Shown here in pieces: positions 75-64,000 of a stretch of 64,000 nucleotides of DNA. The stretch comes from Escherichia coli (GTDB lineage: Bacteria > Pseudomonadota > Gammaproteobacteria > Enterobacterales > Enterobacteriaceae). The stretch lies in assembly GCF_024223415.1 (NCBI RefSeq), contig NZ_CP100500.1; one strand, written 5' to 3'. A model generated the notes under the pieces. It saw nothing but the letters and a program-made list of their open reading frames with translations. It was not told the origin of the DNA and did not search any database. The stretch's first letter is position 1. Each line of letters begins with the position of its first letter. The translations under genes were made by a program, and so were the position numbers.

Positions 75-1178
75 TCAGAACTGATAAGTCAAACCAACAG
101 CGACAATATCATCGGTTAATACATCAGTTCTTTCAGTGAATTGATTCTTATCAAGCAGGTTGATTTTATAGTCTACGTATGTAGACATATTTTTGTTGAA
201 GTAATAAGCAGCACCGACTTCAATGAATTTTTCAATGTATCCGTCATTATGTTTTTCAGGGATACCAGTTTTGGTGGAAAGGTCTTTGGCTTTCGACTGG
301 ATATAAGCAAGAGACGGGCGCAAACCAAAGTCGAACTGATACTGTGCAACTACAGCGAAATCTTCAGTTTTATTGGCTACACCGTTGTAGCCGCCGGGCG
401 AGTACTTGATTGCGCGGGTATTACGTGTTTCACCATAAGTGGCTGCCAGGTACAGATTATTCGCGTCATATTTTACGCTGGTAGCCCACTGTTCAGCTTT
501 TTTACCTTTACCAAAAGTCGTCGCTTCCTGTGCATTGGTGCGATCGGCTGCACCATATGCAGCTACAAAACCAAAGCCTTCATATTCATAACTGACAGAG
601 CCGCCAACACCGTCGCCGTTTGAAGTGCCTGCATTGTCACGCTCATTTTTACCCAGATACTGAACCGCAAAGTTCAGTCCATCAACCAGACCGAAGAAGT
701 CGGTATTACGGTAAGTGGCAACACCACCTACACGACCCACGAAGAAGTTATCCCCGTTAACAGAACCAGGCCCAAATTCAGGGAGGACATCAGTATAGCT
801 TAATGCGTCATACACCACGCCATAGTTACGACCATAATCCAGAGAGCCAATATTTTCTAGTTTCAGGCCAGCGTATGCCAGACGGGTTTTGTCTCCTGCA
901 GAGCCATCTTTTTCTGCCTTGTTGCCTTTGAATTCATATTCCCATTGACCAAAACCAGTTAACTGATTGTTGATTTGGGTTTCACCTTTGAATCCAAGAC
1001 GGGCATAAGTTCCATCACCTTCTTCTTTGGCGTTAGAAGAAAAGTAATGTTTACCCACTACTTTGCCATATAAATCCAGTTTATTACTGTTTTTATTATA
1101 TATTTCTGCTGCATTTGCAGACATTGCCAGAAATACTGATGCTGCTACAGCAGAAAGTGCCACTGTTAAATTTTTCAT
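75..1178 (-). CDS. Outer-membrane porin, OmpC/OmpF/PhoE family (NmpC/OmpD-like prophage moron)
   Basis: 367 aa with signal peptide [23 protein letters not shown] and C-terminal beta-barrel ending GLTYQF; SD GAGGA 5 nt upstream; sits upstream of the lysis genes as nmpC does in DLP12. Confidence 0.9.
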
Positions 1179-1776
1179 TTTTTATCCTCTGGTGGGAGTT
1201 AATTGGACGACAAAATGCTATCAGGATGAAAATTTAATTTCTGTGTATAATGTATACAAGGAAAATTAAGGAGTCCGATTCTTTATATGTGACCACCATC
1301 ACAAAATAAGAAGTCATGCAAGCTAATAAATAGATGGCTATCTTTCACTCAAAAAATTAAGATCAATCTTTTTTATTAGAAGTGCTAAATATATTTAATT
1401 ATTTGGGGTTGTGAGTTATTTATATAACCTTAATAAAGACATTACTTTTGAAGAAAAATACGTGCATAGAAGAATGCATAATCTTTAATTACATCTTGCC
1501 AAGCGTCGCAACAATCCAGAGATTGTATGTGGGGTGAATCATGCAGCATGCAGGGTATGAACAAACACTTTACGATCGTAAAAGTATGCATATCATGGTA
1601 AGAGTGGTTCCTACGCCACACAACTTAAACCCGCAGCCAGGCGGTTTTTTACATCGAAAATCTGCACCGGACATTAAGCTCTTTGGCGGACCAGATAAGA
1701 GGTGCGCTTAGTTGGGTTTGTCGGGCTTTCTCTGAGATTTGCGGTATTAATCCCGTAACGTTATTATGCTGCTCGA

Positions 1777-1852
1777 GGCCCTTTAGCTCAGTGGTGAGAG
1801 CGAGCGACTCATAATCGCAAGGGCGCTGGTTCAAATCCAGCAAGGGCCACCA
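1777..1852 (+). tRNA. tRNA-Ile2 (anticodon CAT, lysidine type; ileX/ileZ-like)
   Basis: Cloverleaf with 7-bp acceptor ggccctt/aagggcc, D stem gctc/gagc, anticodon loop ctCATaa, T loop ttcaaat, encoded CCA; close to E. coli ileX. Confidence 0.85.
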
Positions 1853-1853
1853 A

Positions 1854-1927
1854 CCGCCACTAGCTCATCAGTACAGAGCATCAGCCTTCTAAGCAGACGG
1901 TGCGGGGTTCGAGTCCTCGGTGGCGGA
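1854..1927 (+). tRNA. tRNA-Arg (anticodon TCT)
   Basis: Acceptor ccgccac/gtggcgg, D stem gctc/gagc, anticodon loop ctTCTaa, T arm cgggg-ttcgagt-cctcg; one A-A mismatch in the anticodon stem; no encoded CCA. Confidence 0.75.
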
Positions 1928-1933
1928 TATCAT

Positions 1934-2009
1934 GCCGACTTAGCTCAGCAGGCAGAGCAGTTGATTTGTAATCATCAGGTCACCAGTTCGAACCCGGTAG
2001 TCGGCACCA
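1934..2009 (+). tRNA. tRNA-Thr (anticodon TGT), thrU-like, possibly slightly degenerate
   Basis: Acceptor gccgact/agtcggc plus ACCA, D stem gctc/gagc, anticodon loop ttTGTaa, T loop ttcgaac; one mismatch each in anticodon and T stems. Confidence 0.6.
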
Positions 2010-2017
2010 TATTTTCA

Positions 2018-2040
2018 GGCTCGCATTTGCGGGCCTTTTT
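2018..2040 (+). terminator. Rho-independent terminator after the tRNA cluster
   Basis: Hairpin ggctcgc-attt-gcgggcc followed by TTTTT; a second weaker hairpin plus T7 follows at ~2059-2078. Confidence 0.5.
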
Positions 2041-2404
2041 CATATCTGAACAATACAGCCGCTTTGTGCGGTTTTTTTCATTTGCACAACAGGTAAGAGT
2101 ATTGAATCCGCAGACCTCGCGGAACTGGTGAAAGGTGCCGCGCAGTGCTCTTATCGTTGTGGTGAAGCTCAATGGCGAGCTAGCAGATAGGCGACAGTGA
2201 AAATACTAGTCATGTATCTGACCGCCGCGCGTACTGCAATCGGCAGCGCACCGATGGAAGCCGGTTCGATTCCGGCCGCCACAACCCAAACTGAGCCGTA
2301 GCCACTGGCTGTCCTGAACTCCTCAGTGATAGTTACGCTGCGGCCTTCTTTTTCCCCTTCCTAATACAAGAACTACGCAATCCGTTACTGGCGGAGGCGT
2401 TGCT

Positions 2405-2620
2405 ATGAAATCCATGGATAAGATAACAACGGGTGTCGCCTATGGCACCTCGGCAGGCAGTGCCGGGTACTGGTTTTTGCAGTGGATTGATCAGGTCAGT
2501 CCGTCACAGTGGGCTGCTATTGGTGTGCTGGGGAGTCTGGCACTGGGCTTTCTGACTTATCTGACGAATCTGTACTTCAAAATAAGAGAAGACAAGCGTA
2601 AGGCTGCACGGGGAGAGTAA
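2405..2620 (+). CDS. S: Class II holin (pinholin, phage 21 S21-like) with dual-start motif
   Basis: 71 aa, [30 protein letters not shown]... matches S21 as recalled; two TM segments; SD GGAGG upstream; M1-K-S-M4 dual start. Confidence 0.9.
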
Positions 2621-3497: not shown

Positions 3498-4031
3498 ATG
3501 AGCGCAAAAATCAAATACGGCCTGTCAGCTGCTGTTCTGGCGCTGATTGCTGCAGGCGCGTCTGCTCCTCAAATACTTGACCAGTTTCTGGATGAAAAAG
3601 AGGGTAACCACACTACGGCATACCGCGATGGTTCCGGTATATGGACCATCTGTCGTGGTGCCACAATGGTGGATGGTAAGCCCGTCATACCGGGAATGAA
3701 GCTGTCGAAGGAAAAATGCGACCAGGTTAACGCTATTGAACGTGATAAGGCGCTGGCATGGGTGGAGCGCAATATTAAAGTACCACTGACCGAACCACAA
3801 AAAGCGGGTATAGCGTCATTCTGTCCCTATAACATTGGCCCCGGTAAGTGTTTCCCGTCGACGTTTTATAAGCGGCTTAATGCCGGTGATCGTAAAGGTG
3901 CCTGTGAGTCGATTCGCTGGTGGATTAAGGACGGTGGGCGTGATTGCCGCACACGTTCAAATAACTGCTACGGACAGGTTATTCGTCGTGACCAGGAAGC
4001 AGCACTTGTGTGCTGGGATATCGACAGATGA
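3498..4031 (+). CDS. R: SAR endolysin (phage lysozyme, R21-like)
   Basis: 177 aa; N-terminal signal-anchor LSAAVLALIAAGASAP followed by lysozyme-like motifs (EGNHTTAYRDGSGIWTICRG); paired with a pinholin. Confidence 0.9.
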   Translation: MSAKIKYGLSAAVLALIAAGASAPQILDQFLDEKEGNHTTAYRDGSGIWTICRGATMVDGKPVIPGMKLSKEKCDQVNAIERDKALAWVERNIKVPLTEPQKAGIASFCPYNIGPGKCFPSTFYKRLNAGDRKGACESIRWWIKDGGRDCRTRSNNCYGQVIRRDQEAALVCWDIDR

Positions 4032-4125
4032 GCAGAATATTTTGCTGAAAAATGACGTTGGCCAACGCGGACGGATAACACGATATTCGACATAAATGAA
4101 TTTAAATAGTGAATAAAAGCAGAAA

Positions 4126-4154
4126 CCCCGATTGTTGGTCGCAATCGGGGTTTT
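4126..4154 (+). terminator. Rho-independent terminator immediately downstream of R
   Basis: 9-bp stem ccccgattg/caatcgggg, 7-nt loop, then TTTT. Confidence 0.6.
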
Positions 4155-4216
4155 GTGTTTCTGGCAGTAAGTTATGGGAGGCTGCCTTGATTAATTTTAG
4201 CGGAGGAGACTGGATT

Positions 4217-4354
4217 GTGGAAGCTCTGAAATTGCTCGAAAGAAGTCCGGTTCTGAGAAGAATGTTTTATATAGCTCTTATAGTTATCGGAGCATTCGCC
4301 GTTGCGAAATCACTTCCGGGAATAGCTGAAATCATAAAGGCGCTGAATGCATAA
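4217..4354 (+). CDS. Small membrane protein (45 aa, GTG start), part of the insertion between R and Rz
   Basis: SD GGAGGA 9 nt upstream of GTG; one predicted TM helix MFYIALIVIGAFAVA; alternative ATG start at 4262. Confidence 0.35.
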   Translation: MEALKLLERSPVLRRMFYIALIVIGAFAVAKSLPGIAEIIKALNA

Positions 4355-4520
4355 AGAATACCTGGCTGAGGCTGACAAACAGGTCTCTGAATTGAAAGCT
4401 CCGGTAACCGATGACATCAGCGGAGCGGTGGCTTTTGCCATTAAGTGGGTGGCAGTCGGCGTTGCTATATCACCGGTACTGTATGGGCTGGCAAAGCTGG
4501 TTATTGCGTTGAAATCATAA
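4347..4520 (+). CDS. Small membrane protein (57 aa), start overlaps the stop of the previous small ORF
   Basis: MHKEYLAEADKQVSELK... with C-terminal TM helix AFAIKWVAVGVAISPVLYGLAKLVIAL; below the 60-aa cutoff of the ORF track. Confidence 0.4.
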   Translation: MHKEYLAEADKQVSELKAPVTDDISGAVAFAIKWVAVGVAISPVLYGLAKLVIALKS

Positions 4521-4583
4521 CTGTTACGGCCAGGTGATTCGTCGTGACCAGGAAAGTGCATTAGCCTGTTGGGGGATAGATCA

Positions 4584-5051
4584 GTGAGCAGAGTCGCCGC
4601 GATTATTTATGCTCTGGTTATCTGCATCATCGTCTGCCTGTCGTGGGCGGTCAATCATTACCGTGATAACGCCATCGCCTACAAAGAACAGCGTGATAAA
4701 AAAGTCAGTGAGCTGAAGCAGGCGACCGCCACCATTACTGACATGCAGCAACGCCAGCGTGCTGCTGATGTACTCGATGCTAAATACACGAAGGAGTTGG
4801 CTGATGCGAAAGCTGAAAATGATGCTCTTCGGCGCAAGCTTGATAATGGTGGTCGGGTGCTCGTCAAAGGAAAATGCCCTGTGCCATCCTCAGCCGAAAC
4901 CTCCAGCGCCTCCGGCATGGGCAATGATGCCACCGTCGAACTCTCTCCAGTTGCTGGACGAAACGTTCTCGGTGTCCGGGACGGAATTATCCGCGACCAA
5001 ACAGCACTGAGAACGCTTCAGGAATACATCAGGACGCAATGCCTTCGATGA
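4584..5051 (+). CDS. Rz: Rz i-spanin
   Basis: GTG start, [40 protein letters not shown]... closely matches lambda Rz as recalled; N-terminal TM anchor. Confidence 0.85.
4804..5010 (+). CDS. Rz1: Rz1 o-spanin lipoprotein, embedded in the +1 frame of Rz
   Basis: [21 protein letters not shown]... with lipobox VVGC and proline-rich mature part; entirely inside Rz. Confidence 0.8.
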
Positions 5052-11885: not shown

Positions 11886-12233
11886 ATGGTAACGAAAACC
11901 ATCACTGAACAGCGTGCGGAAGTACGTATTTTTGCCGGTAATGATCCGGCTCATACCGCCACAGGCAGCAGCGGGATTTCCTCGCCAACACCGGCACTGA
12001 CGCCCCTGATGCTGGATGAAGCCACCGGGAAACTGGTGGTCTGGGACGGACAGAAAGCCGGTAGTGCGGTTGGCATACTGGTACTGCCGCTTGAAGGCAC
12101 AGAGACGGTGCTGACGTATTACAAGTCGGGAACCTTTGCGACGGAGGCAATCCGCTGGCCTGACAGTGTGGATGAACACAAAAAGGCCAACGCCTTTGCC
12201 GGTAGTGCCCTGAGTCACGCGGCGCTGCCGTAA
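11886..12233 (+). CDS. D: Head decoration protein D
   Basis: 115 aa; NDPAHTATGSSGIS...PLMLDEATGKLVVWDG...YKSGTF matches lambda gpD; strong SD. Confidence 0.9.
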   Translation: MVTKTITEQRAEVRIFAGNDPAHTATGSSGISSPTPALTPLMLDEATGKLVVWDGQKAGSAVGILVLPLEGTETVLTYYKSGTFATEAIRWPDSVDEHKKANAFAGSALSHAALP

Positions 12234-12290: not shown

Positions 12291-13220
12291 ATGGGATTGT
12301 TTACGACCCGCCAGTTACTCGGTTATACCGAACAAAAAGTGAAATTTCGTGCGCTGTTTCTGGAGCTGTTTTTCCGTCGTACGGTGAATTTCCATACCGA
12401 AGAGGTGATGCTGGACAAAATTACCGGAAAAACGCCGGTGGCGGCCTATGTCTCCCCGGTTGTTGAAGGAAAAGTGCTGCGTCATCGTGGTGGTGAAACC
12501 CGCGTGTTGCGTCCGGGCTACGTCAAGCCGAAACACGAATTTAATTCCCGGCAGGCGGTTGAGCGCCTTCCTGGTGAAGATCCGGCTCAACTGAACGATC
12601 CGGCTTACCGCCGTCTGCGTATCATTACCGATAACCTCAAACAGGAAGAGCACGCGATTGTCCAGGTGGAAGAAATGCAGGCGGTAAATGCCGTGCTGTA
12701 TGGCAAATACACCATGGAAGGAGACCAGTTCGAGAAAATTGAGGTCGATTTTGGCAGGTCGACGAAGAATAACATTACGCAGGCCAGTGGTAAAAAATGG
12801 TCTGAGCACGATCGTGACACGTTCGATCCTGCGCATGATATTGACCTCTACTGCGACCAGGCCAGCGGCCTTGTGAATATTGCCATTATGGACGGTACCG
12901 TCTGGCGTCTGCTGAATGGTTTTAAGCTGTTCCGCGAAAAACTGGATACCCGTCGCGGTTCAAATTCGCAACTCGAAACGGCAGTGAAAGACCTGGGGGC
13001 GGTGGTGTCTTTCAAAGGGTATTACGGTGATCTGGCCATTGTGGTGGCGAAAACGTCTTATGTGGCAGAGGACGGTACCGAAAAACGTTATCTGCCAGAC
13101 GGCACGCTGGTCCTGGGGAATACTGCTGCAGATGGGATCCGTTGTTACGGTGCCATTCAGGATGCACAGGCGTTGTCTGAAGGAGTGGTGCCTCTTCCCG
13201 TTATCCGAAACACTGGCTGA
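12291..13220 (+). CDS. E: Major capsid protein E, apparently frameshifted near 13186 (C-terminal 44 codons continue in another frame to 13318)
   Basis: N-terminal 300 aa align with lambda gpE; after ...QALSEGV the frame reaches a stop, while frame +2 encodes ASSRYPKHWLTVGDPAREFTMTQSAPLMVLPDPDEFVVVQVK, the expected gpE C-terminus. Confidence 0.75.
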   Translation: MGLFTTRQLLGYTEQKVKFRALFLELFFRRTVNFHTEEVMLDKITGKTPVAAYVSPVVEGKVLRHRGGETRVLRPGYVKPKHEFNSRQAVERLPGEDPAQLNDPAYRRLRIITDNLKQEEHAIVQVEEMQAVNAVLYGKYTMEGDQFEKIEVDFGRSTKNNITQASGKKWSEHDRDTFDPAHDIDLYCDQASGLVNIAIMDGTVWRLLNGFKLFREKLDTRRGSNSQLETAVKDLGAVVSFKGYYGDLAIVVAKTSYVAEDGTEKRYLPDGTLVLGNTAADGIRCYGAIQDAQALSEGVVPLPVIRNTG

Positions 13221-13327
13221 CGGTGGGGGATCCCGCCCGTGAATTTACCATGACGCAGTCCGCGCCGCTGATGGTGTTGCCGGACCCGGATGAGTTTGTG
13301 GTGGTACAGGTGAAATAATCCGTGAGC

Positions 13328-13355
13328 GGGGGCGAAATGCCCCCGTGTCTTTTTT
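13328..13355 (+). terminator. Hairpin plus T-run between capsid gene E and FI
   Basis: gggggc-gaaat-gccccc, 5 nt, then TTTTTT. Confidence 0.5.
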
Positions 13356-13369
13356 CACAGGGGGCTGAT

Positions 13370-13732
13370 ATGGCAACGAAAGAGCAAAATCTGAAACGGC
13401 TTGATGAACTGGCCCTGATTCTGGGGCGTGAGCCGGATATATCCGGGAGTGCCGCAGAGATAGCGCAGCGGGTGGCGGAATGGGAAGAGGAAGCAGAGGA
13501 CAAAAACCAGGAGAGTGATGAGAACGAAAGGCATTTGATGACGTATAGCCACTCCACTGGCGGGGATGAAATGAGCACTGTTCGTGTACTCAAAACCCTG
13601 CATGTGGCGGGAAAACATCCGCATGATGACAGTGATATGGAGATTGTTGTTACAGGTATGACTGTCAGAGTTGATCCAGTGAATGTTGCGGAACTTGTCC
13701 TGGAGGGGCTTGTTACAGATGAAAGTTATTAA
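13370..13732 (+). CDS. FI: DNA-packaging protein FI-like
   Basis: Position after E, lambda FI-like size, acidic; SD AGGGGG. Confidence 0.7.
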   Translation: MATKEQNLKRLDELALILGREPDISGSAAEIAQRVAEWEEEAEDKNQESDENERHLMTYSHSTGGDEMSTVRVLKTLHVAGKHPHDDSDMEIVVTGMTVRVDPVNVAELVLEGLVTDESY

Positions 13733-15823: not shown

Positions 15824-16246
15824 ATGTTCCTGAAAAACGAATCATTTGAACATAACGGCGTGACCGTCACGCTTTCTGAACTGTCAGCCCTGCAGCGTAT
15901 TGAGCATCTTGCCTGGTTGAAAGAGCAGGAAAAAAAGGCTGAATCCAGTGGCAACCTGCAGGTGTCTGTAGAGGATCTTATCAGAGGCGGGGCGTTTCTG
16001 GTGGCGATGTCTCTGTGGCATAACCATCCGCAGAAGACAAAGCTGCTGCCCATGAATGAAGCCATTACGCAGATTGAGCAGGAAGTGCTTACCACCTGGC
16101 CCACGGAGGCAATTGCTCAGGCTGAAAACGTGGTGTTACGTCTGTCCGGAATGTCTGAGTTTGTTGTGAATAATGCCCCTGAACAGGCAGATGACGCCGG
16201 GCCTGCAGAGCCTGTTTCTGCGGGAAAGTGTTCGACGGTGAGCTGA
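15824..16246 (+). CDS. G: Tail assembly chaperone G
   Basis: 140 aa; ends just after the slippery heptamer GGGAAAG. Confidence 0.9.
   Translation: MFLKNESFEHNGVTVTLSELSALQRIEHLAWLKEQEKKAESSGNLQVSVEDLIRGGAFLVAMSLWHNHPQKTKLLPMNEAITQIEQEVLTTWPTEAIAQAENVVLRLSGMSEFVVNNAPEQADDAGPAEPVSAGKCSTVS
16222..16228 (+). promoter_or_regulatory. Programmed -1 ribosomal frameshift slippery site (G GGA AAG) producing the G-T fusion
   Basis: Exact lambda G/GT heptamer located 6 codons before the G stop; the T frame opens here. Confidence 0.8.
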
Positions 16247-16662
16247 GTTTTGCCCTGAAACTGGCGCGTGAGATGGGGCGACCCGACTGGCGCGCCATGC
16301 TTGCCGGGATGTCATCCACGGAGTATGCCGACTGGCACCGCTTTTACAGTACCCATTATTTTCATGATGTTCTGCTGGATATGCACTTTTCCGGGCTGAC
16401 GTACACCGTGCTCAGCCTGTTTTTCAGCGATCCGGATATGCATCCGCTGGATTTCAGTCTGCTGAACCGGCGCGAGGCTGACGAAGAGCCTGAAGATGAT
16501 GTGCTGATGCAGAAAGCGGCAGGGCTTGCCGGAGGCGTCCGCTTTGGCCCGGACGGGAATGAAGTTATCCCTGCATCCCCGGATGTGGCGGACATGACGG
16601 AGGATGACGTAATGCTGATGACAGTATCAGAAGGGATCGCAGGAGGAGTCCGGTATGGCTGA
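16228..16662 (+). CDS. T: Tail assembly protein T (made only as a G-T fusion by -1 frameshift)
   Basis: -1 frame ORF extending from the slippery site to the start of H. Confidence 0.8.
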   Translation: MFDGELSFALKLAREMGRPDWRAMLAGMSSTEYADWHRFYSTHYFHDVLLDMHFSGLTYTVLSLFFSDPDMHPLDFSLLNRREADEEPEDDVLMQKAAGLAGGVRFGPDGNEVIPASPDVADMTEDDVMLMTVSEGIAGGVRYG

Positions 16663-19216
16663 ACCGGTAGGCGATCTGGTCGTTGATTTAAGTCTGGATG
16701 CGGCCAGGTTTGACGAGCAGATGGCCAGAGTCAGGCGTCATTTTTCCGGTACGGAAAGTGATGCGAAAAAAACAGCGGCAGTCGTTGAACAGTCAATGAA
16801 CCGGCAGGCGCTGGCTGCACAGAAAGCGGGGATTTCCGTCGGACAGTATAAAGCCGCCATGCGTATGCTGCCTGCACAGTTCACCGACGTGGCCACACAG
16901 CTTGCAGGCGGGCAGAGTCCGTGGCTGATCCTGCTGCAACAGGGTGGTCAGGTGAAGGACTCCTTCGGCGGGATGATCCCCATGTTCAGGGGGCTTGCCG
17001 GTGCGATCACCCTGCCGATGGTCGGGGCCACCTCGCTGGCGGTGGCGACCGGTGCGCTGGCGTATGCCTGGTATCAGGGCAACTCAACCCTGTCCGATTT
17101 CAACAAAACGCTGGTCCTTTCCGGCAATCAGGCGGGACTGACGGCAGATCGTATGCTGGTCCTGTCCAGAGCCGGGCAGGCGGCAGGGCTGACGTTTAAC
17201 CAGACCAGCGAGTCACTCAGCGCACTGGTTAAGGCGGGGGTAAGCGGTGAGGCTCAGATTGCGTCCATCAGCCAGAGTGTGGCGCGTTTCTCCTCTGCAT
17301 CCGGCGTGGAGGTGGACAAGGTCGCTGAAGCCTTCGGGAAGCTGACCACAGACCCGACGTCGGGGCTGACGGCGATGGCGCGCCAGTTCCATAACGTGAC
17401 GGCGGAGCAGATTGCGTATGTTGCTCAGTTGCAGCGTTCCGGCGATGAGGCAGGGGCATTGCAGGCGGCGAACGAGGCCGCAACGAAAGGGTTTGATGAC
17501 CAGACCCGCCGCCTGAAAGAGAACATGGGCACGCTGGAAACCTGGGCAGACAGGACAGCACGGGCATTCAAATCCATGTGGGATGCGGTGCTGGATACTG
17601 GTCGTCCTGATACCGCGCAGGAGATGCTGATTAAGGCAGAGGCCGCGTTTAAGAAAGCGGACGATATCTGGAATCTGCGCAAGGATGATTATTTTGTTAA
17701 CGATGAAGCGCGGGCGCGTTACTGGGATGATCGTGAAAAGGCCCGTCTTGCGCTTGAAGCCGCCCGAAAGAAGGCTGAGCAGCAGAGTCAACAGGACAAA
17801 AATGCGCAGCAGCAGAGCGATACCGAAGCGTCACGGCTGAAATATACCGAAGAGGCGCAGAAGGCTTACGAACGCCTGCAGACACCGCTGGAGAAATATA
17901 CCGCCCGTCAGGAAGAACTGAACAAGGCACTGAAAGACGGAAAAATCCTGCAGGCAGATTACAACACGCTGATGGCGGCGGCGAAAAAGGATTATGAAGC
18001 GACGCTGAAAAAGCCGAAACAGTCCGGCGTGAAGGTGTCTGCGGGCGATCGTCAGGAAGACAGTGCTCATGCCGCCCTGCTGACGCTTCAGGCAGAACTC
18101 CGGACGCTGGAGAAGCATGCCGGAGCAAATGAGAAAATCAGCCAGCAGCGCCGGGATTTGTGGAAGGCGGAGAGTCAGTTCGCGGTACTGGAGGAGGCGG
18201 CGCAACGTCGCCAGCTGTCTGCACAGGAGAAATCCCTGCTGGCGCATAAAGATGAGACGCTGGAGTACAAACGCCAGCTGGCTGCACTTGGCGACAAGGT
18301 TACGTATCAGGAGCGCCTGAACGCGCTGGCGCAGCAGGCGGATAAATTCGCACAGCAGCAACGGGCAAAACGGGCCGCCATTGATGCGAAAAGCCGGGGG
18401 CTGACTGACCGGCAGACAGAACGGGAAGCCACGGAACAGCGCCTGAAGGAACAGTATGGCGATAATCCGCTGGCGCTGAATAACGTCATGTCAGAGCAGA
18501 AAAAGACCTGGGCGGCTGAAGACCAGCTTCGCGGGAACTGGATGGCAGGCCTGAAGTCCGGCTGGAGTGAGTGGGAAGAGAGCGCCACGGACAGTATGTC
18601 GCAGGTAAAAAGTGCAGCCACGCAGACCTTTGATGGAATTGCACAGAATATGGCGGCGATGCTGACCGGCAGTGAGCAGAACTGGCGCAGCTTCACCCGT
18701 TCCGTGCTGTCCATGATGACAGAAATTCTGCTTAAGCAGGCAATGGTGGGGATTGTCGGGAGTATCGGCAGCGTCATTGGCGGTGCTGCCGGTGGTGGCG
18801 CATCAGTGTCAGGCGGTACAGCCATTCAGGCTGCTGCGGCAAAATTCCATTTTGCGACCGGGGGATTTACGGGAACCGGCGGCAAATATGAGCCAGCGGG
18901 GATTGTTCACCGTGGTGAGTTTGTCTTCACGAAGGAGGCAACCAGCCGGATTGGCGTGGGAAATCTCTACCGGCTGATGCGCGGCTATGCCACTGGTGGT
19001 TATGTCGGTGGCACCGGAAGTCCGGCACAAATGCGGCGTTCAGAGGGTATCAGGTTTGAGCAGAACAACAACGTGGTGATTCAGAACGACGGTACGAATG
19101 GTCTGCCAGGTCCACAGATGCTGAAGGCGGTGTATGACATGGCCCGCAAGGGTGCCCGTGATGAAATTCAGACACAGATGCGTGATGGTGGTCTGTTCTC
19201 CGGAGGTGGACGATGA
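16655..19216 (+). CDS. H: Tail tape measure protein H
   Basis: 853 aa, the same length as lambda H; coiled-coil-rich with a Gly-rich C-terminal region. Confidence 0.9.
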   Translation: MAEPVGDLVVDLSLDAARFDEQMARVRRHFSGTESDAKKTAAVVEQSMNRQALAAQKAGISVGQYKAAMRMLPAQFTDVATQLAGGQSPWLILLQQGGQVKDSFGGMIPMFRGLAGAITLPMVGATSLAVATGALAYAWYQGNSTLSDFNKTLVLSGNQAGLTADRMLVLSRAGQAAGLTFNQTSESLSALVKAGVSGEAQIASISQSVARFSSASGVEVDKVAEAFGKLTTDPTSGLTAMARQFHNVTAEQIAYVAQLQRSGDEAGALQAANEAATKGFDDQTRRLKENMGTLETWADRTARAFKSMWDAVLDTGRPDTAQEMLIKAEAAFKKADDIWNLRKDDYFVNDEARARYWDDREKARLALEAARKKAEQQSQQDKNAQQQSDTEASRLKYTEEAQKAYERLQTPLEKYTARQEELNKALKDGKILQADYNTLMAAAKKDYEATLKKPKQSGVKVSAGDRQEDSAHAALLTLQAELRTLEKHAGANEKISQQRRDLWKAESQFAVLEEAAQRRQLSAQEKSLLAHKDETLEYKRQLAALGDKVTYQERLNALAQQADKFAQQQRAKRAAIDAKSRGLTDRQTEREATEQRLKEQYGDNPLALNNVMSEQKKTWAAEDQLRGNWMAGLKSGWSEWEESATDSMSQVKSAATQTFDGIAQNMAAMLTGSEQNWRSFTRSVLSMMTEILLKQAMVGIVGSIGSVIGGAAGGGASVSGGTAIQAAAAKFHFATGGFTGTGGKYEPAGIVHRGEFVFTKEATSRIGVGNLYRLMRGYATGGYVGGTGSPAQMRRSEGIRFEQNNNVVIQNDGTNGLPGPQMLKAVYDMARKGARDEIQTQMRDGGLFSGGGR

Positions 19217-21593: not shown

Positions 21594-24500
21594 ATGGGTA
21601 AAGGCAGCAGTAAGGGGCATACCCCGCGCGAAGCGAAGGACAACCTGAAGTCCACGCAGTTGCTGAGTGTGATCGATGTCATCAGCGAAGGGCCGATACA
21701 AGGACCGGTGGATGGATTAAAAAGCGTGCTGCTGAACGGTACGCCGGTGCTGGACAGTGAGGGGAATACCAATATATCCGGCGTCACGGTGGTATTCCGG
21801 GCCGGTGAGCAGGAGCAGACGCCGCCGGAGGGATTTGAATCCTCCGGCTCCGAGACGGTGCTGGGTACGGAAGTGAAGTACGACACGCCGATTACCCGGA
21901 CCATCACGTCGGCAAACATCGACCGTCTGCGCCTGACCTTCGGTGTGCAGGCACTGGTGGAAACCACCTCAAAGGGGGACCGGAATCCGTCGGAAGTCCG
22001 CCTGCTGGTTCAGATACAGCGTAACGGTCGCTGGTTAACGGAAAAAGACATCACCATTAAGGGCAAAACCACTTCACAGTATCTGGCTTCGGTGGTGGTG
22101 GATAACCTGCCGCCGCGCCCGTTCAGTATCCGGATGCGCAGGATGACACCGGACAGCACCACAGACCAGCTGCAGAACAAAACGCTCTGGTCGTCATACA
22201 CCGAAATCATCGATGTGAAACAGTGCTACCCGAACACGGCACTGGTCGGTGTGCAGGTGGATTCGGAGGAGTTCGGCAGCCAGCAGGTGAGCCGTAATTA
22301 TCATTTTCGCGGGCGCATTCTGCAGGTGCCGTCGAACTATAACCCGCAGACGCGGCAATACAGCGGTATCTGGGACGGAACGTTTAAACCGGCATACAGC
22401 GATAACCCGGCCTGGTGTCTGTGGGATATGCTGACCCACCCGCGCTACGGCATGGGGAAACGTGTTGGCGCAGCGGATGTGGACAAATGGGCGCTGTATG
22501 TCATCGGCCAGTACTGCGACCAGTCGGTGCCGGACGGCTCTGGTGGCACGGAGCCGCGCATCACCTGTAATGCCTGGCTGACCAGGCAGCGTAAGGCGTG
22601 GGATGTGCTCAGTGATTTCTGCTCGGCGATGCGCTGTATGCCGGTATGGAACGGGCAGACGCTGACGTTCGTGCAGGACCGACCGTCGGATAAGGTGTGG
22701 ACCTATAACCGCAGTAATGTGGTGATGCCGGATGATGGCGCGCCGTTCCGCTACAGCTTCAGCGCCCTGAAGGACCGCCATAATGCCGTTGAGGTGAACT
22801 GGAGTGACCCGGATAACGGCCAGGAGACGGCGACAGAGCTTGTGGAGGACACGCAGGCCATTGCCCGTTACGGTCGTAACGTCACGAAGATGGATGCCTT
22901 TGGCTGTACCAGCCGGGGGCAGGCACACCGCGCCGGGCTGTGGCTGATTAAAACGGAGCTGCTGGAAACGCAGACCGTGGACTTCAGCGTGGGTGCCGAA
23001 GGGCTTCGCCATGTGCCGGGCGATGTCATTGAAATCTGTGATGATGACTATGCCGGTATCAGCACCGGTGGGCGCGTGCTGGCGGTGAACAGCCAGACCC
23101 GGACGCTGACGCTCGATCGTGAAATCACGCTGCCATCCTCCGGTACCACGCTGATAAGCCTGGTTGACGGAAGTGGCAATCCGGTCAGCGTGGAGGTTCA
23201 GTCCGTCACTGACGGCGTGAAGGTGAAAGTGAGCAGTGTTCCTGACGGCGTTGCTGAATACAGCGTGTGGGGGCTGAAGCTGCCGACGCTGCGCCAGCGC
23301 CTGTTCCGCTGCGTGAGTATCCGTGAGAACGACGACGGCACGTATGCCATCACTGCCGTGCAGCATGTACCGGAAAAAGAGGCCATCGTGGATAACGGGG
23401 CGCACTTTGACGGCGACCAGAGCGGAACGGTGAATGGTGTCACGCCGCCAGCGGTGCAGCACCTGACCGCAGAAGTCACCGCAGACAGCGGGGAATATCA
23501 GGTGCTGGCGCGCTGGGACACGCCGAAGGTGGTGAAGGGCGTGAGCTTCCTGCTTCGCCTGACCGTGGCAGCGGATGACGGCAGTGAGCGGCTGGTCAGC
23601 ACGGCCCGGACGACGGAAACCACATACCGCTTCAGGCAACTGGCGCTGGGGCGTTACACGCTGACGGTCCGGGCGGTAAATGCCCGGGGGCAGCAGGGAG
23701 ACCCGGCGTCGGTATCGTTCCGGATTGCCGCACCGGCAGCGCCGTCGCGGATTGAGCTGACGCCGGGCTATTTTCAGATAACCGCCACGCCGCATCTTGC
23801 GGTTTACGATCCGACGGTACAGTTTGAGTTCTGGTTTTCGGAAAAGCGGATTACCGATATCAGGCAGGTTGAAACCACAGCCCGTTATCTTGGTACCGGA
23901 AGGCAGTGGCTTGTCTCCGGCCAGAATATTAAACCTGGCCATGATTATTACTTTTATATCCGCAGTGTTAACACTGTCGGTAAATCGGCATTCGTGGAGG
24001 CAGTCGGTCGGGCGAGTAATGATCCTGCCGGTTACCTTAATTTTTTCAGGGGGGCGATAAATAAAACGCATCTGGGACGGGAGATCAATGAACGCATTGA
24101 TGCCTCTGCACGGCGCACTGAAGTTGAGCAACTGGAGAATGCGATTAACCGCGAAATGACGCAGCTGGAGAAAGATGTGAGGCAGCGTGCGGAGCGTGAT
24201 ATCGCAGAGGTGACGAAAAAAATCACGGCGTCTGAAAACAGCATAACGGAACTGGTGGCGAAAAAGAGCGGTGAACAGTCAATGGCCATTGCGGAAGTTG
24301 ACAGAAAAGTTGACAGGATGGGAAGCGAAATCCGGCAGACAGTAAGCAGGAGCACGGAGGAGAACAGCCGACAGATAGCGCAGATCAGACAGTATGTTGA
24401 TGATAAGGGAAGTCAGATCACACAGAGCACGGATAAAAAACTGGGATCCTGGAATGCCAGCATTGAGCAGATACAGAAAGTTCAGGAGGACACGCGCCGG

Positions 24501-25325
24501 AACCTGAACAGCATGTGGGCTGTGAAGCTGCAGCAGACACGGGATGGACGTCTCTATATTGCAGGTATTGGTGCCGGAATCGAAAATACGTCTGACGGAA
24601 TTCAGAGTCAGATCCTGATGCAGGCAGATCGTATTGCGATGATTAACCCGGAAAATGGCAATACAACACCTTTGTTTGTAGCTCAGGGTGATCAGCTGTT
24701 CATGAATGATGTTTTCATGAAGCGACTGTTTGCGGTGAGTATCACCTCATCCGGCAATCCCCCGGCATTTTCCCTGACACCGGACGGGCGTCTGACGGCG
24801 AAAAATGTCGATATCAGTGGTAACGTGAATGCGAATTCGGGCTCGCTCAACAACGTCACGATTAACGAGAACTGTCGGGTTCTGGGAAAACTGTCTGCAA
24901 ACCAGATTGAAGGCGATCTCGTTAAAACAGTGGGTAAGGCTTTCCCCCGTGACTCCCGTGCACCGGAGACGTGGCCATCAGGGACCATTACCGTCAGGGT
25001 TTATGACGATCAGCCGTTTGACCGGCAAATTGTTATTCCAGCGGTGGCTTTCAGGGGGGCCAGACATCCGCGGAAGGATAAGGAGCCTTATTCGTCATGC
25101 CGCCTGATAGTGAAGAAAAACGGGGCTGAAATTTATAACCGAACGGCTCTGGATAATACGCTGATATACACGGGTGTTATTGATATGCCTGCAGGCAGTG
25201 GCGTAATGACACTGGAGTTTTCGGTATCAGCATGGTGGGTAAATGGCTGGTATCCCTCAGCAAGTATCAGCGATTTGCTGGTTGTTGTGATGAAGAAAGC
25301 CACTGCAGGCATCACGATTAGCTGA
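21594..25325 (+). CDS. J: Central tail fibre / host specificity protein J
   Basis: 1243 aa with conserved J N-terminal domains; C-terminal ~350 aa is the receptor-binding region. Confidence 0.9.
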
Positions 25326-25343
25326 ATTTTATAACCCAGATAC

Positions 25344-25368
25344 GGGCGCCAGAAATGGCGCCTTTTTT
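25344..25368 (+). terminator. Rho-independent terminator after J
   Basis: ggcgcc-agaaat-ggcgcc followed by TTTTTT. Confidence 0.6.
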
Positions 25369-25383
25369 ATTTGTGGAGCGAGT

Positions 25384-27198
25384 ATGGCGGCTGTAAAAAT
25401 TTCAGGCGTGCTGAGGGACGGAACCGGAAAACCGGTACCGGGATGCATTATTGAGCTGAAAGCGAAGAGAACCAGCGAGACAGTCATCGCCACGACAGTG
25501 GCTTATGGCATGCCGGAAGAGACGGGGAGTTACAGTATGGATGTGGAGCCAGGAATATACAGGGTGACACTCAATACAGAAGGTTACCGTCCTTCGTATG
25601 TGGGAGATATCGTGGTCAGGGAGGATTCTTCACCGGGAACACTGAATAAATTTCTGATGGAGATGGAAGATGCTCCTTATTATCCGAAGGCGTTGTCAGA
25701 GCTGGAGGCTGTGGTGCAGTCCATACTGCACAGAGCAGAGTCCGCGGCATCTGAGGCGGAGGAAGCCCGGAAACGAGCTGCATCTGCCCGGGGACCACGA
25801 GGAGAGAAAGGGGATACTGGTGCTCGTGGTGAAAGAGGCATTACCGGGCCACAGGGGCCAAAAGGTGAAACAGGAGCACGTGGCCCGGCAGGACCACAGG
25901 GACCAAAAGGTGAAACAGGTGAACGCGGTCCGGCAGGTCCACAGGGACTAAAGGGCGATACAGGTGAACGCGGCCCGGCAGGTCCACAGGGACCAAAGGG
26001 TGAAACAGGTGCACGCGGCCCGGCAGGTCCACAGGGAGCAAAGGGCGAAACAGGTGAACGCGGCCCGGCAGGTCCACAGGGAGCAAAGGGCGAAACAGGT
26101 GCACGTGGTCCGGAAGGCCCTCAGGGTCTGAAGGGAGAAAAGGGTGAGCGAGGAGAAAAAGGCCCTAAGGGGGATAAAGGAGATCCGGGAGGTCCACAGG
26201 GACCAAAGGGGGATACAGGTGAACGCGGCCCGGCAGGTCCACAGGGATCAAAGGGCGATACAGGTGAACGTGGCCCGGCAGGTCCTCAGGGACCAAAGGG
26301 GGATACAGGTGAACGTGGCCCGGAAGGTCCACAGGGAGCAAAGGGTGAAACAGGTGAACGCGGCCCGGCAGGACCACAGGGACCAAAAGGTGAAACAGGT
26401 GAACGCGGTCCGACAGGTCCACAGGGAGCAAAAGGTGAAACAGGAGCACGCGGTCCGGCAGGTCCTCAGGGACCAAGAGGAGAGTCAGCCCGTGGACAAC
26501 TGCTGAATGGTGATCTGAACCGACTGGGACGAGTGACCGATCAGGGTGATTATTATCAGCCATCAGACAGTGGGGCTACACGAGAAAATAATTATCCGAT
26601 TCAGAGAGCGGGTTATCTTCAGGTAAGAGTTGGTGCATGGGGATATTGCCAGCATGAATATACAACCTGGAACCCACCACGAAAGTTCGTAAGAACTGTT
26701 ACTGGTAATTTTACCGGTAATGGCCCCTGGTCTGAATGGAAAGAGCTGGGAGCCCAGGGGGAGCGTGGTCCACAGGGACCAAAAGGTGAAACAGGTGCAC
26801 GCGGTCCGGCAGGTCCACAGGGGCCAAGAGGGTATACAGGTGAACGCGGGCAGACAGGTCTACAGGGGCCAAGAGGGTATACAGGTGAACGCGGTCCGGC
26901 AGGTCCACAGGGGCCAAGAGGAGAAGCGGGGCGGCCAGCGAGCGTCGGAAGTGTTTATTCCGTGGGGTCTTATGTTCTGGGGATCATAGAACGAAATCAT
27001 GAGATAACAAATACCCGTCAAATACCCGGGTATCGTATCAGACAGGCCGTTATTGTGTCGTCGTCATCGGATAAACTTACAGATATCCGCTTTTTATTTG
27101 GCAATCCTATGCTTGGTACATGGATGTTATGCACAACTAACATGACGGTGAATAATATCATTGGGACGATTTGGGGCCTGTTTCAGAGAATACGGTGA
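25384..27198 (+). CDS. stf: Side tail fibre protein with collagen-like Gly-X-Y repeats (Stf N-terminus)
   Basis: N-terminus [29 protein letters not shown] resembles lambda Stf; then long runs of [16 protein letters not shown]. Confidence 0.85.
25790..26490 (+). repeat. Collagen-like (Gly-X-Y)n coding repeats inside stf; second block at ~26750-26935
   Basis: Tandem 27-bp units encoding [16 protein letters not shown] and variants; these create spurious ORFs in other frames. Confidence 0.85.
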
Positions 27199-29644: not shown

Positions 29645-29704
29645 CAGGTCAGGATTTAGATATCTGTCCCGGGGGAGTCCCCCGGGATATAATGAGGTAC
29701 AGAG

Positions 29705-30792: not shown

Positions 30793-31005
30793 AACCCCCT
30801 CCTGTAACTGTAGTTATGTACAGGTGTTATTTTTAGCTGTGTGGATAACCAGTGTCAATTGGTAATATTGCCTATGGGGCATGTATGGGACACTTTTTAT
30901 CGGCGAAATCCGTCGAAGTTCGTCGACATCGAAAACGAATCATCTGTCCAACCCTTGAAAAATGGCGCTCCTGGACGATCTTCGTCGATTTTTAAAAATG
31001 TTGCG

Positions 31006-31074
31006 TCACGCGCGTAACGTGACAGGATTAATATCACAAAGCAACGCCACTTCACCAATTGTGTAAAGCGCCAT
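31006..31074 (-). pseudogene. mlrA: mlrA (yehV) 5' fragment, truncated after codon 23 by prophage insertion
   Basis: Minus-strand ATG at 31074 encodes MALYTIGEVALLCDINPVTLRA then a stop; this matches the MerR-type MlrA N-terminus as recalled, and the sequence to the left is phage. Confidence 0.7.
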
Positions 31075-60745: not shown

Positions 60746-61969
60746 GTGGGAAAAGCACTAAACAAACTGAGCGATTCGACGTTAAAAAAATTGGCGTCTG
60801 TCCAAGCAGAAAAAGAGCGTTTTTACTCCGACGGGGGCGGGCTGGAGATTAAACACTCAAAGGGCGGCAAATTAACCTGGTATTTCCGGTACCGAACGGG
60901 AGGCCGTGAGGTTGCCGCAGAGCGGTTAAAGCTGGGGGCTTACCCTGAATTGTCGCTGAAAGCTGCAAGGGAAAAACGCGCACAGTGCCGGGCATGGCTG
61001 GCTGAGGGTAAAAACCCCCGTTATGAGTTGTGCGCCACAGTACAGGAAGCGCTAAAACCCGTTACGGTGAAGGAGGCGATTAACTACTGGCTGGATGAAT
61101 ATGCGAAGGATAACCGCAAAGACTACATAAAGCTGGTGCAACGTATGGATAAGCACATCATTTGCCATATAGGGGCAATTCCCCTTGATAAGTGTGATAC
61201 AAGGCAGTGGATCGCATGTTTTGACCGTGTACGAAAAAAAGCACCAGTAGCAGCAGGGCACGTCATGCAAACCTGCAAACAGGCGCTAAAGTTCTGCCGC
61301 AGGAGACGCTACGCGTTCAGTAATGCCCTGGACGATTTGATCGTCAGCGATGTGGGTAAGAGAGCAGAAATTCGCGAGAGGGTGCACAGCAACAGCGAAT
61401 TAAAGGAAATTTTACGCGCTATTGATGGTGATGTGTTCGCGCCTTACTACAGCGCGTTAATGCGCTTGCTGATTGTGTTCGGGTGCAGAACGGCAGAGGT
61501 CAGACTTTCAGAGATCAAAGAATGGGATCTGAAAGAAATGTTGTGGACAGTGCCAAAAGAGCATAGCAAAACGAAGGTAACGATATTCAGGCCAATCCCC
61601 GATGGCATTTTGCCGTTCATTCAGAAGCTGGTGGAGCAGAACCGGCATACAGGGTTATTACTCGGAGAACTGAAAAAAGATACCACGGTAGCGCAATATG
61701 GGCGAAATGCGCATAAGCGGCTTAACCAGGAACACTGGACGCTGCATGACTTTCGCCACACGTTTACAACGATGCTGAACGATTTAGGTGTCGATCCGCA
61801 TATCGTGGAGCACATCACAGCGCATCAGATGCCCGGTCAGCAAAAAACCTATAACCATTCACGCTATTTACAGGCGAAGCGAGACGCTCTGAATCTGTGG
61901 GTTGAGCGCCTCGATGTGCTGGCTGGAAATCATGAAAATATTGTCATATTAAGGGCTGAAAATGAATAA
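60746..61969 (+). CDS. int: Tyrosine recombinase, P4/CP4-57-type integrase
   Basis: 407 aa; C-terminal catalytic motifs (HDFRHTF...HITAH...Y); GTG start. Confidence 0.9.
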   Translation: MGKALNKLSDSTLKKLASVQAEKERFYSDGGGLEIKHSKGGKLTWYFRYRTGGREVAAERLKLGAYPELSLKAAREKRAQCRAWLAEGKNPRYELCATVQEALKPVTVKEAINYWLDEYAKDNRKDYIKLVQRMDKHIICHIGAIPLDKCDTRQWIACFDRVRKKAPVAAGHVMQTCKQALKFCRRRRYAFSNALDDLIVSDVGKRAEIRERVHSNSELKEILRAIDGDVFAPYYSALMRLLIVFGCRTAEVRLSEIKEWDLKEMLWTVPKEHSKTKVTIFRPIPDGILPFIQKLVEQNRHTGLLLGELKKDTTVAQYGRNAHKRLNQEHWTLHDFRHTFTTMLNDLGVDPHIVEHITAHQMPGQQKTYNHSRYLQAKRDALNLWVERLDVLAGNHENIVILRAENE

Positions 61970-62747
61970 TCTGGGCCGTGTATATCATACGCTGCCAATG
62001 GCAGCTAAAAAAATGGGATGTACTGTAGAGGATATTCTACATTTTGGTGCAACTAACCGACTTGAAATATGTGCGTATATTGATGATATTGAACAGAGAA
62101 AAGATTATTGCACTTTTAATGTGTTTTTTGATAATGAAGATAGCGAGAATAGTTTTTCTAAAACTATAAATAAATATAATTCCATATTTACTGACATGTA
62201 TGAAATATCATTGTTTAATTATAATGATGAGTTTTGTGTTGATGATGAGCGTATGGTTATTGAAGGTTTGTATGCTAATCATATGAAAGGCTTTTTTGCA
62301 ATACCATCTGAATTTCTTGTCGAAGTTGAATTGTCAAGTGCCTGTGAAATCATAAATCTATCGCCTCGTTATTTATATACACCGAAAGGTTATGGTGATT
62401 ATATTCGGTTGGATAGTATAGAAGGTCTTTCTATTCCAGAAAACAGGCTCGTGATATTCGATAGTGAGATATCGGGTTTTAATTATCAAAAGAAACCTAA
62501 ATATGCCGGAGGTGAAAGAGAATCACCTAAAACCAGAGCTAAAAAAGCCGAGATAATACCTGCTCTCATAAAACTGATCCCTGAGATGCAAGATGTGGAT
62601 TTGGAGGATACACCCGTATCCAAAATTGCAGAAATGATAGAGGTTATTGCTGCACAAAGAGGGGTTGAGTTACCTAGCACTCACAGGCAGACATGGCAGA
62701 AATATTTAGGGCGTGATGCTGGTGACGTTCCAAAACGTCAAAAGTGA
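61962..62747 (+). CDS. Hypothetical protein, low GC, start overlaps the integrase stop
   Basis: 261-aa ORF overlapping the int stop (ATGAATAA); AT-rich codon usage; no family recognised. Confidence 0.6.
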   Translation: MNNLGRVYHTLPMAAKKMGCTVEDILHFGATNRLEICAYIDDIEQRKDYCTFNVFFDNEDSENSFSKTINKYNSIFTDMYEISLFNYNDEFCVDDERMVIEGLYANHMKGFFAIPSEFLVEVELSSACEIINLSPRYLYTPKGYGDYIRLDSIEGLSIPENRLVIFDSEISGFNYQKKPKYAGGERESPKTRAKKAEIIPALIKLIPEMQDVDLEDTPVSKIAEMIEVIAAQRGVELPSTHRQTWQKYLGRDAGDVPKRQK

Positions 62748-62837
62748 TATCACGTACAGATAGTGTGATATCACACAAACGGCATTTTACCACCGCCTAG
62801 AATCGTCCTCGTTCGGCAACGTTCGAGGACGTTTTTT

Positions 62838-63062
62838 ATGAATCAAAATACACAATTTCAATCACTATCAGATCGCGTAATCCGTGAGGATGAATGCCGT
62901 AAGTTAACAGGAGTGTGCCGCACTACACGCTACGAACTGGAGAAAAAAGGGAGCTTTCCGTCTCGCCGTAATCTTGGTGGGCGTTCTGTAGGTTGGCTGC
63001 TGTCCGAGGTTATGGAATGGGTTAAAAGCCGGGATCGCATTAATTCAGGCAAGGCAGCGTAA
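62838..63062 (+). CDS. alpA: AlpA-family phage transcriptional regulator
   Basis: 74 aa; HTH region RKLTGVCRTTRYELEKKGSFPSRRNLGGRSVGWLLSEVMEWV typical of AlpA. Confidence 0.85.
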   Translation: MNQNTQFQSLSDRVIREDECRKLTGVCRTTRYELEKKGSFPSRRNLGGRSVGWLLSEVMEWVKSRDRINSGKAA

Positions 63063-63200
63063 AGGGGAGTATATGACACATAAAACAAAGGCGACCGGGG
63101 GCGGTCGCCAATGGGAAAACACTAAACATAAGCCCGGCCATCATAGCGATTTGCTGGCTGGTGGGCAATGTGTCCAGTGTGGTGGCTTGCTGGTGGATTG

Positions 63201-63428
63201 TCAGCCAGGCGGTCGGTTTTTGCCGGATTTAAGCCGCCGTGGGTATTTATCGACAAAATCTTCAAGGGCAAATTTTTCTGGTGGCACTAAGCGCGGCGCT
63301 GGTGGTGGTATTTTTGTTCTGGTTAGTTCTTCCTCAAGTCTGGCGCAGGCTTCTGACTGCCTTTGCCGGATGATTTCATCATCTTGCGTTTGCGTGTCTT
63401 GTATTGGTGATAGTGTGTTGTTGGTCAT
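63201..63428 (-). CDS. Hypothetical protein
   Basis: 75-aa ORF downstream of the RHH-like gene on the same strand. Confidence 0.45.
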   Translation of the reverse strand: MTNNTLSPIQDTQTQDDEIIRQRQSEACARLEEELTRTKIPPPAPRLVPPEKFALEDFVDKYPRRLKSGKNRPPG

Positions 63429-63485
63429 GATACTGCCCTGTAAAGCAATGCGCCGTAGTACCTCACACCACGGCGCTGATAGTGA

Positions 63486-63683
63486 TTATTCTGATTCTTT
63501 GGCCTTGCGGCGCTGTTCATATTTTAATTTGCGTCCACAGGCATCTAAGACCCATGCGGAAAAATTAGCACTAGGATTAGTTAATTTTTCTTGTTCAACG
63601 CTGGCATCAATCCCATCTATAAGCTCATGTGGGAATCGAATATTTTTCTTTGCTGATTTGTTGTTTGTGTTACCACTAGACAT
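63486..63683 (-). CDS. YlcI/YnfO-family ribbon-helix-helix-like small protein, candidate repressor
   Basis: 65 aa with NIRFP...NFSAWV..AC motif; SD GAGGTG; divergent from an operator-containing promoter. Confidence 0.7.
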   Translation of the reverse strand: MSSGNTNNKSAKKNIRFPHELIDGIDASVEQEKLTNPSANFSAWVLDACGRKLKYEQRRKAKESE

Positions 63684-63751
63684 TGATGCACCTCACTTAA
63701 ATGGACTTTATGGGCGCACACAATACAGCAAAAAAAGTGAGAAGTTAAGTA

Positions 63752-63790
63752 TTGACATGTGCGCACACATGATTCTAATCTGTGCGCACA
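63752..63790 (+). promoter_or_regulatory. Sigma-70-type promoter (TTGACA, 16 nt, TCTAAT) overlapped by two TGTGCGCACA palindromic operators
   Basis: -35 at 63752-63757, -10 at 63774-63779; perfect 10-bp palindromes at 63758-63767 and 63781-63790; related half-sites at ~63711-63720 and 63911-63920. Confidence 0.55.
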
Positions 63791-63883
63791 GTTTGGGTTG
63801 CATTGCTCAAATTAAGCAACGCCCCGCAGTGCTCGCAACACATGCAGGGCGTCTAACCAAACCGTTAATAGGAGTAACGATTA

Positions 63884-64000
63884 TGGCTGGAACACAGCAT
63901 ACCCCACGCCTTGCGCACACACAAACCGCCTTTGTGTGGCGTTTTCTGGCACTGAGTGCCGGAGAATCTCAAATTATCCACGTAACCGCCTGGACGGAAC
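63884..64000 (+). CDS. Hypothetical protein, 5' end only (runs off the window)
   Basis: ATG with SD AGGAG downstream of the operator-controlled promoter. Confidence 0.5.

Follow-up and report, generated by a model that had tools for sequence, protein, structure and literature searches.

A single missing G splits the major capsid gene in the record of a lambda/phage 21-type prophage lying in mlrA of an Escherichia coli chromosome

The window, i.e., the whole stretch of 64,000 nucleotides that was analyzed, is part of an E. coli chromosome, and its positions 31007-63174 align at 98.7% with the btsS-yeh-metG-rcn region of TUM9812. The right end of a prophage abuts a cut mlrA (yehV) gene within 30858-31074, where only the first 22 codons of mlrA are left (MALYTIGEVALLCDINPVTLRA, then a stop; 31074-31006, minus strand), and this reduction of mlrA at the prophage end indicates that the prophage is inserted in mlrA. 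Prophage insertions in this gene are reported to limit curli expression and biofilm formation (PMC3874044). A second integrase island begins beside rcnR, with an integrase gene at 60746-61969 followed by a reading frame at 61962-62747, and occupies the same place as an island of TUM9812 (window 60746-64000).

The prophage genes present in the window form a late operon of the lambda type. Its lysis and packaging part comprises an S21-type holin, endolysin and Rz, the terminase genes Nu1 and A, W and the portal gene, while the head and tail part comprises the S49 protease, decoration protein, capsid, FI, FII, Z, U, V, G/T, H, M, L, K, I, J and tail fibre genes. Upstream of the lysis genes are a 367-aa porin gene (75-1178, minus strand) and a tRNA cluster, Met(CAT)-Arg(TCT)-Thr(TGT), at 1777-2009, the latter preceding the S21-type holin gene of 71 aa (2405-2620); no toxin gene was found after the tRNA cluster (window 75-2620). 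An insert of about 550 bp (4032-4584) separates the endolysin gene (3498-4031) from Rz (4584-5051), two genes that overlap directly in the relatives. An ORF of 81 aa (4109-4354) lies in this insert, at whose end (4513-4584) the final 24 codons of the endolysin gene are repeated; the insert resembles a moron or a scar left by recombination. In the tail part, the J protein (1243 aa) is 58 aa shorter than that of DG342-2 owing to an in-frame difference near 24255-24406 (window 21594-27198), no lom gene was found between J and the tail-fibre gene (25384-27198), and the latter contains internally repeated collagen-like segments at 25846-26480. The tape-measure gene H (16655-19216, 853 aa) is intact; in DG342-2, which is the closest large-scale relative of the prophage, the annotation gives the tape-measure gene as a pseudogene, interrupted by a stop codon (L125, 17938-20517).

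The major capsid gene is read in two frames (Table 1). The frame-0 ORF starts with the ATG at 12291, behind a ribosome-binding site, counts 309 codons and ends in ...QALSEGVVPLPVIRNTG* with the TGA at 13218-13220, its out-of-frame tail being PLPVIRNTG. The –1 frame is open from 13181, and from 13190 it codes ASSRYPKHWLTVGDPAREFTMTQSAPLMVLPDPDEFVVVQVK* to 13318. The product of the gene as recorded would thus consist of 300 native and 9 wrong residues, with the 42 native C-terminal residues gone, whereas restoring one G in silico yields a gene of 1029 nt encoding 342 aa. The ORF translations bear out the original prediction, according to which a gpE-like frame stops at 13220 and the expected C-terminus continues in the next frame to 13318.

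Table 1. Coordinates of the capsid gene, its lesion and the two adjacent genes in the window.
Feature	Position	Strand	Basis
Intact gene of the head decoration protein (D/SHP type), immediately upstream	11886..12233	+	PF02924 in identical proteins
Full span of the interrupted major capsid gene (lambda E / phage 21 gene 7 type)	12291..13318	+	1028 nt here vs 1029 nt in all homologues
Frame-0 ORF: native for 300 codons (to 13190), out of frame for the last 9	12291..13220	+	tblastn with intact homologue: residues 1-300 = 12291-13190, one frame
Lesion site: GTG/CC here vs GTG/GCC in homologues; one G of the GG pair absent	13188..13192	+	Alignments with homologues
–1 frame segment: native last 42 residues, A301-K342, and TAA 13316-13318	13190..13318	+	Aligns with lambda gpE residues about 300-340
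Intact FI gene (DNA packaging), immediately downstream	13370..13732	+	100% identical to FI of L129; PF14000

Judged by its sequence, the gene belongs to the Phage_cap_E family of major capsid proteins, which includes lambda gpE and phage 21 gp7. At the nucleotide level it shares 96% identity with gene 7 of phage 21; the repaired 342-aa protein covers positions 1-329 of the 329 of Pfam PF03864 (Phage_cap_E; E = 1.9e-66), and its residues 1-341 align with residues 1-340 of lambda gpE (PDB 7VI9; E = 3e-134). The genomic context is also that of the family, with the head gene order protease - decoration protein - capsid - FI present in the window and, as around phage 21 gene 7 and lambda gpE, the longer order portal - S49 protease - decoration protein - capsid - FI - FII - Z - U - V - G/T - H. 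The difference from these models is that in the window one G is missing and the coding sequence is divided between two frames, while the phage and prophage homologues examined are single ORFs of 342 codons. As written, the window gene is a pseudogene of the gpE/gp7 family, since the only family feature that it fails to show is an ORF that runs through about 341-342 codons without a break. Genes of this kind are widespread in the species: the segment 12291-13400 (1110 nt) matches sequences annotated as “major capsid protein” and “gpFI” in 1,910 of 5,426 complete E. coli genomes, with up to five copies of the capsid gene per genome.

Alignment of positions 13100-13330 with AR_0085, Ch1, 14EC047 and phage 21 contains exactly one gap in the window, GTGGT-GCC facing GTGGTGGCC, so that the homologous string GTGGTGGCC is reduced to GTGGTGCC at 13185-13192. 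The missing base adjoins G13190; it can be counted as the base that opens codon 301 (GCC, Ala) or, with the same result, as the one that closes codon 300. The loss of a single G with a change to the –1 frame, as originally proposed, agrees with more than 30 independently retrieved homologues, including an alignment check against intact gpE homologues; the site proposed for it needs correction, because the string GTGGGTGCC quoted for 13183-13188 is absent from the sequence, the true one being GTGGTGCC at 13185-13192.

Apart from this G, the capsid gene is a common allele. The nearest match among complete genomes, AR_0085, is 99.9% identical over the 1110 nt, with the G gap as the sole difference, and over the capsid gene itself four independent assemblies (AR_0085, L133, L134 and L140) are identical to the window save for the missing G, i.e., 0 mismatches and one gap. 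All of the 153 loci covering the site read GTGGTGGC(C/T), a sample that is biased in that about 120 of them were retrieved by the intact pattern and unbiased for the about 30 reached via neighboring proteins. The latter set consists of 30 loci fetched by exact identity to the FI, decoration or portal proteins of the window, and all of its members that cover the site read GTGGTGGC(C/T) as well; prophages with an FI, D or portal protein identical to that of the window are 95-99.5% identical, and the GG is intact in all of them.

The deleted allele was not found in any other sequence searched. Its exact 38-nt pattern gave 0 matches in IMG/VR, in GTDB (one genome per species) and in the JGI metagenomes, while the intact pattern gave at least 120 matches in IMG/VR. 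With a 70-nt megablast query across the site, 1,396 of the 5,426 complete E. coli genomes were found to hold the site and none matched at ≥99%, the best matches spanning 71 bases, as the intact allele does. In exact-protein look-ups, the truncated 309-aa capsid protein was not on record, nor were the tape measure protein H and terminase A of the window. Within these collections the allele appears private to the window record, and its absence from all other public sequence searched makes it impossible to trace it via relatives. Related genomes sharing the lesion, which are the mark of an inherited pseudogene in a decaying prophage, were thus found neither in IMG/VR, GTDB and JGI nor among the 1,396 E. 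coli genomes. The literature retrieved provided context on defective prophages and on insertion in mlrA, and nothing specific to the lesion.

The surroundings of the lesion are intact. When 25 late proteins of intact relatives were compared with the window by tblastn, each was found full-length in a single frame, with the exception of the capsid protein, which splits at 13190; the original prediction, which also described the remaining head and tail genes as apparently intact, is therefore correct on this point inside the window. No additional degenerative lesion was seen among the 25 late genes, the early half of the prophage lying outside the window. Approximately 57 kb of the window was also aligned with DG342-2, TUM9812, AR_0085 and others, with no other private indel; the remaining gaps either are paired and lie within diverged mosaic segments or are intergenic, and none is an unpaired coding indel. 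In L154 and L156, about 12 kb align with 155-180 substitutions and one gap only, that of the capsid G. The two differences in run length, C8 at 60063 and G5 at 29670, are alleles found in other complete genomes; as these are shared and no other indel is private, the record does not look indel-prone, and general proneness to indels, which was considered as an explanation, was rejected. The lesion itself falls in a GG pair, and G5, A6 and the other runs of ≥5 in the gene agree with the relatives. The mark of an artefact, namely an indel in a homopolymer run accompanied by similar errors nearby, was therefore not seen at the capsid site.

Programmed recoding, by –1 ribosomal frameshifting or by slippage of transcription inside 13181-13220, was considered as a way in which the two frames might still yield full-length capsid protein, and the geometry allows it, because a –1 shift anywhere in this 40-nt overlap would join the frames. 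In this respect the capsid gene resembles the lambda G/GT gene pair, with its programmed –1 frameshift between two overlapping frames; it differs from it in that a slippery heptamer, a stimulatory structure and conservation of the split are all absent. Along the whole gene, frame 0 is free of X_XXY_YYZ heptamers, the overlap contains no homopolymer, and at –35.2 kcal/mol the minimum free energy of the 109 nt at 13192-13300 is close to the mean of shuffled sequences, –34.5 (z = –0.19). Moreover, the two-frame layout is not conserved, every homologue being one uninterrupted ORF of 342 codons, and the true programmed site of the prophage, GGGAAAG in G/T (16222-16228), looks quite different. This lambda-type heptamer is conserved, and lies just 5′ of the G stop codon (16244-16246), and the T frame (16228-16662) is open. 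Each head takes up hundreds of copies of its major capsid protein, 415 in the case of lambda, and a shift of low efficiency would not supply them. Programmed frameshifting and transcriptional slippage, with no heptamer, homopolymer run or structure to sustain them and with single-ORF homologues throughout, were rejected as exceedingly improbable. Equally far-fetched is that the truncated capsid protein is useful to the lysogen, e.g., as a dominant-negative subunit poisoning the head assembly of related superinfecting phages. Nothing direct speaks for such a role, although the ORF retains its ribosome-binding site and start codon and would be expressed from the late transcript; conservation of the allele in no other genome gives no sign of selection, and the late genes are silent in a lysogen, so that the product would be absent unless the late operon were trans-activated. 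A real deletion whose 309-aa protein is kept to hinder superinfecting lambdoid phages, or whose full-length product is made by a signal-less –1 shift at G13190, is very unlikely.

The explanations that carry weight are mainly two. The original prediction had proposed either an inactivating mutation or a sequencing error, and the single-G basis of this proposal stands. We incline, at a little better than an even chance, to a real and very recent mutation that knocked out the capsid gene. In this case, a lambda/phage 21-type prophage in mlrA would have lost one capsid G, translation would leave the native frame after residue 300, add nine wrong residues and stop, and the final 42 residues of the 342-aa protein of HK97 fold would be lost. 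The lost 42 residues align with the C-terminal end of lambda gpE; the truncated protein would presumably be unable to build a shell, and the prophage would be left without heads of its own; heads could still be produced via complementation by another lambdoid prophage or via recombination repair from it. The lesion would be very recent, because the remaining gene is a widespread allele and the neighboring late genes are all intact. The alternative, to which we give somewhat less than an even chance, is a sequencing or assembly artefact, in which the strain has GTGGTGGCC and an intact gene of 342 codons, and the G was lost at the base-calling, consensus or polishing stage.

Several of the observations reported above can be read both ways. 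The gene that differs from four relatives by one gap and no mismatch, and whose repaired protein is full-length with respect to lambda gpE and PF03864, fits a real deletion, but a pristine gene minus one base amid 25 intact late genes also resembles a base-calling error, and the uniqueness of the allele in the collections searched, where the intact one is abundant, points in the latter direction. With no other carrier, inheritance, which would be the best sign of a real mutation, cannot be demonstrated. The sequence context argues for a deletion present in the DNA of the cell: the lesion is in a run of two bases, whereas errors of long-read or flow-based sequencing concentrate in longer runs; these are all correct in the gene, and no other private or unpaired coding indel occurs in about 57 kb. 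The other broken copies of the gene in public sequence differ in their lesions. In Ch1 (QRM71_RS02215; L002) the G5 run of the capsid gene is reduced to G4 and the gene is annotated as “frameshifted,” and in NCTC contig UARY01000011 (L128) the same run is expanded to G6, together with a change of an A-run in FII. These look technical, and as likely sequencing frameshifts in public copies of the same gene they favor an artefact in the window too. Both share with the window a single-base indel near the 3′ end of the capsid gene within an otherwise intact head-tail cluster; by contrast, theirs arose independently in a G5 run lying 35 nt farther downstream, as is typical of homopolymer errors in long reads, and the window has this G5 correct. 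On the other side, genuine decay of the gene is seen in L141, where the capsid protein is cut after 54 aa beside an Rhs gene, and in L142, where a large deletion has produced a 1226-aa E-J fusion, and this speaks for a real deletion in the window.

Frameshifted prophage genes and single-base errors in records are both commonplace, so that nothing new in kind is described here, and the case matters little beyond annotation, as neither outcome bears on an open question. If the deletion is an error, the capsid gene should be annotated as intact. If it is real, the prophage would resemble the defective lambdoid prophages of E. coli treated in PMC3945230, where defective prophages and temperate phages are reported to exchange sequence by recombination: it would carry a single lethal lesion in a morphogenesis gene and could in principle donate or regain sequence, with the difference that one lesion is seen in the window and the early half of the prophage lies outside it. 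A real deletion would thus make this one more recently inactivated prophage, reparable by recombination with related prophages, and the inability of the prophage in mlrA to form heads of its own would be relevant to the question of phage release by the strain.
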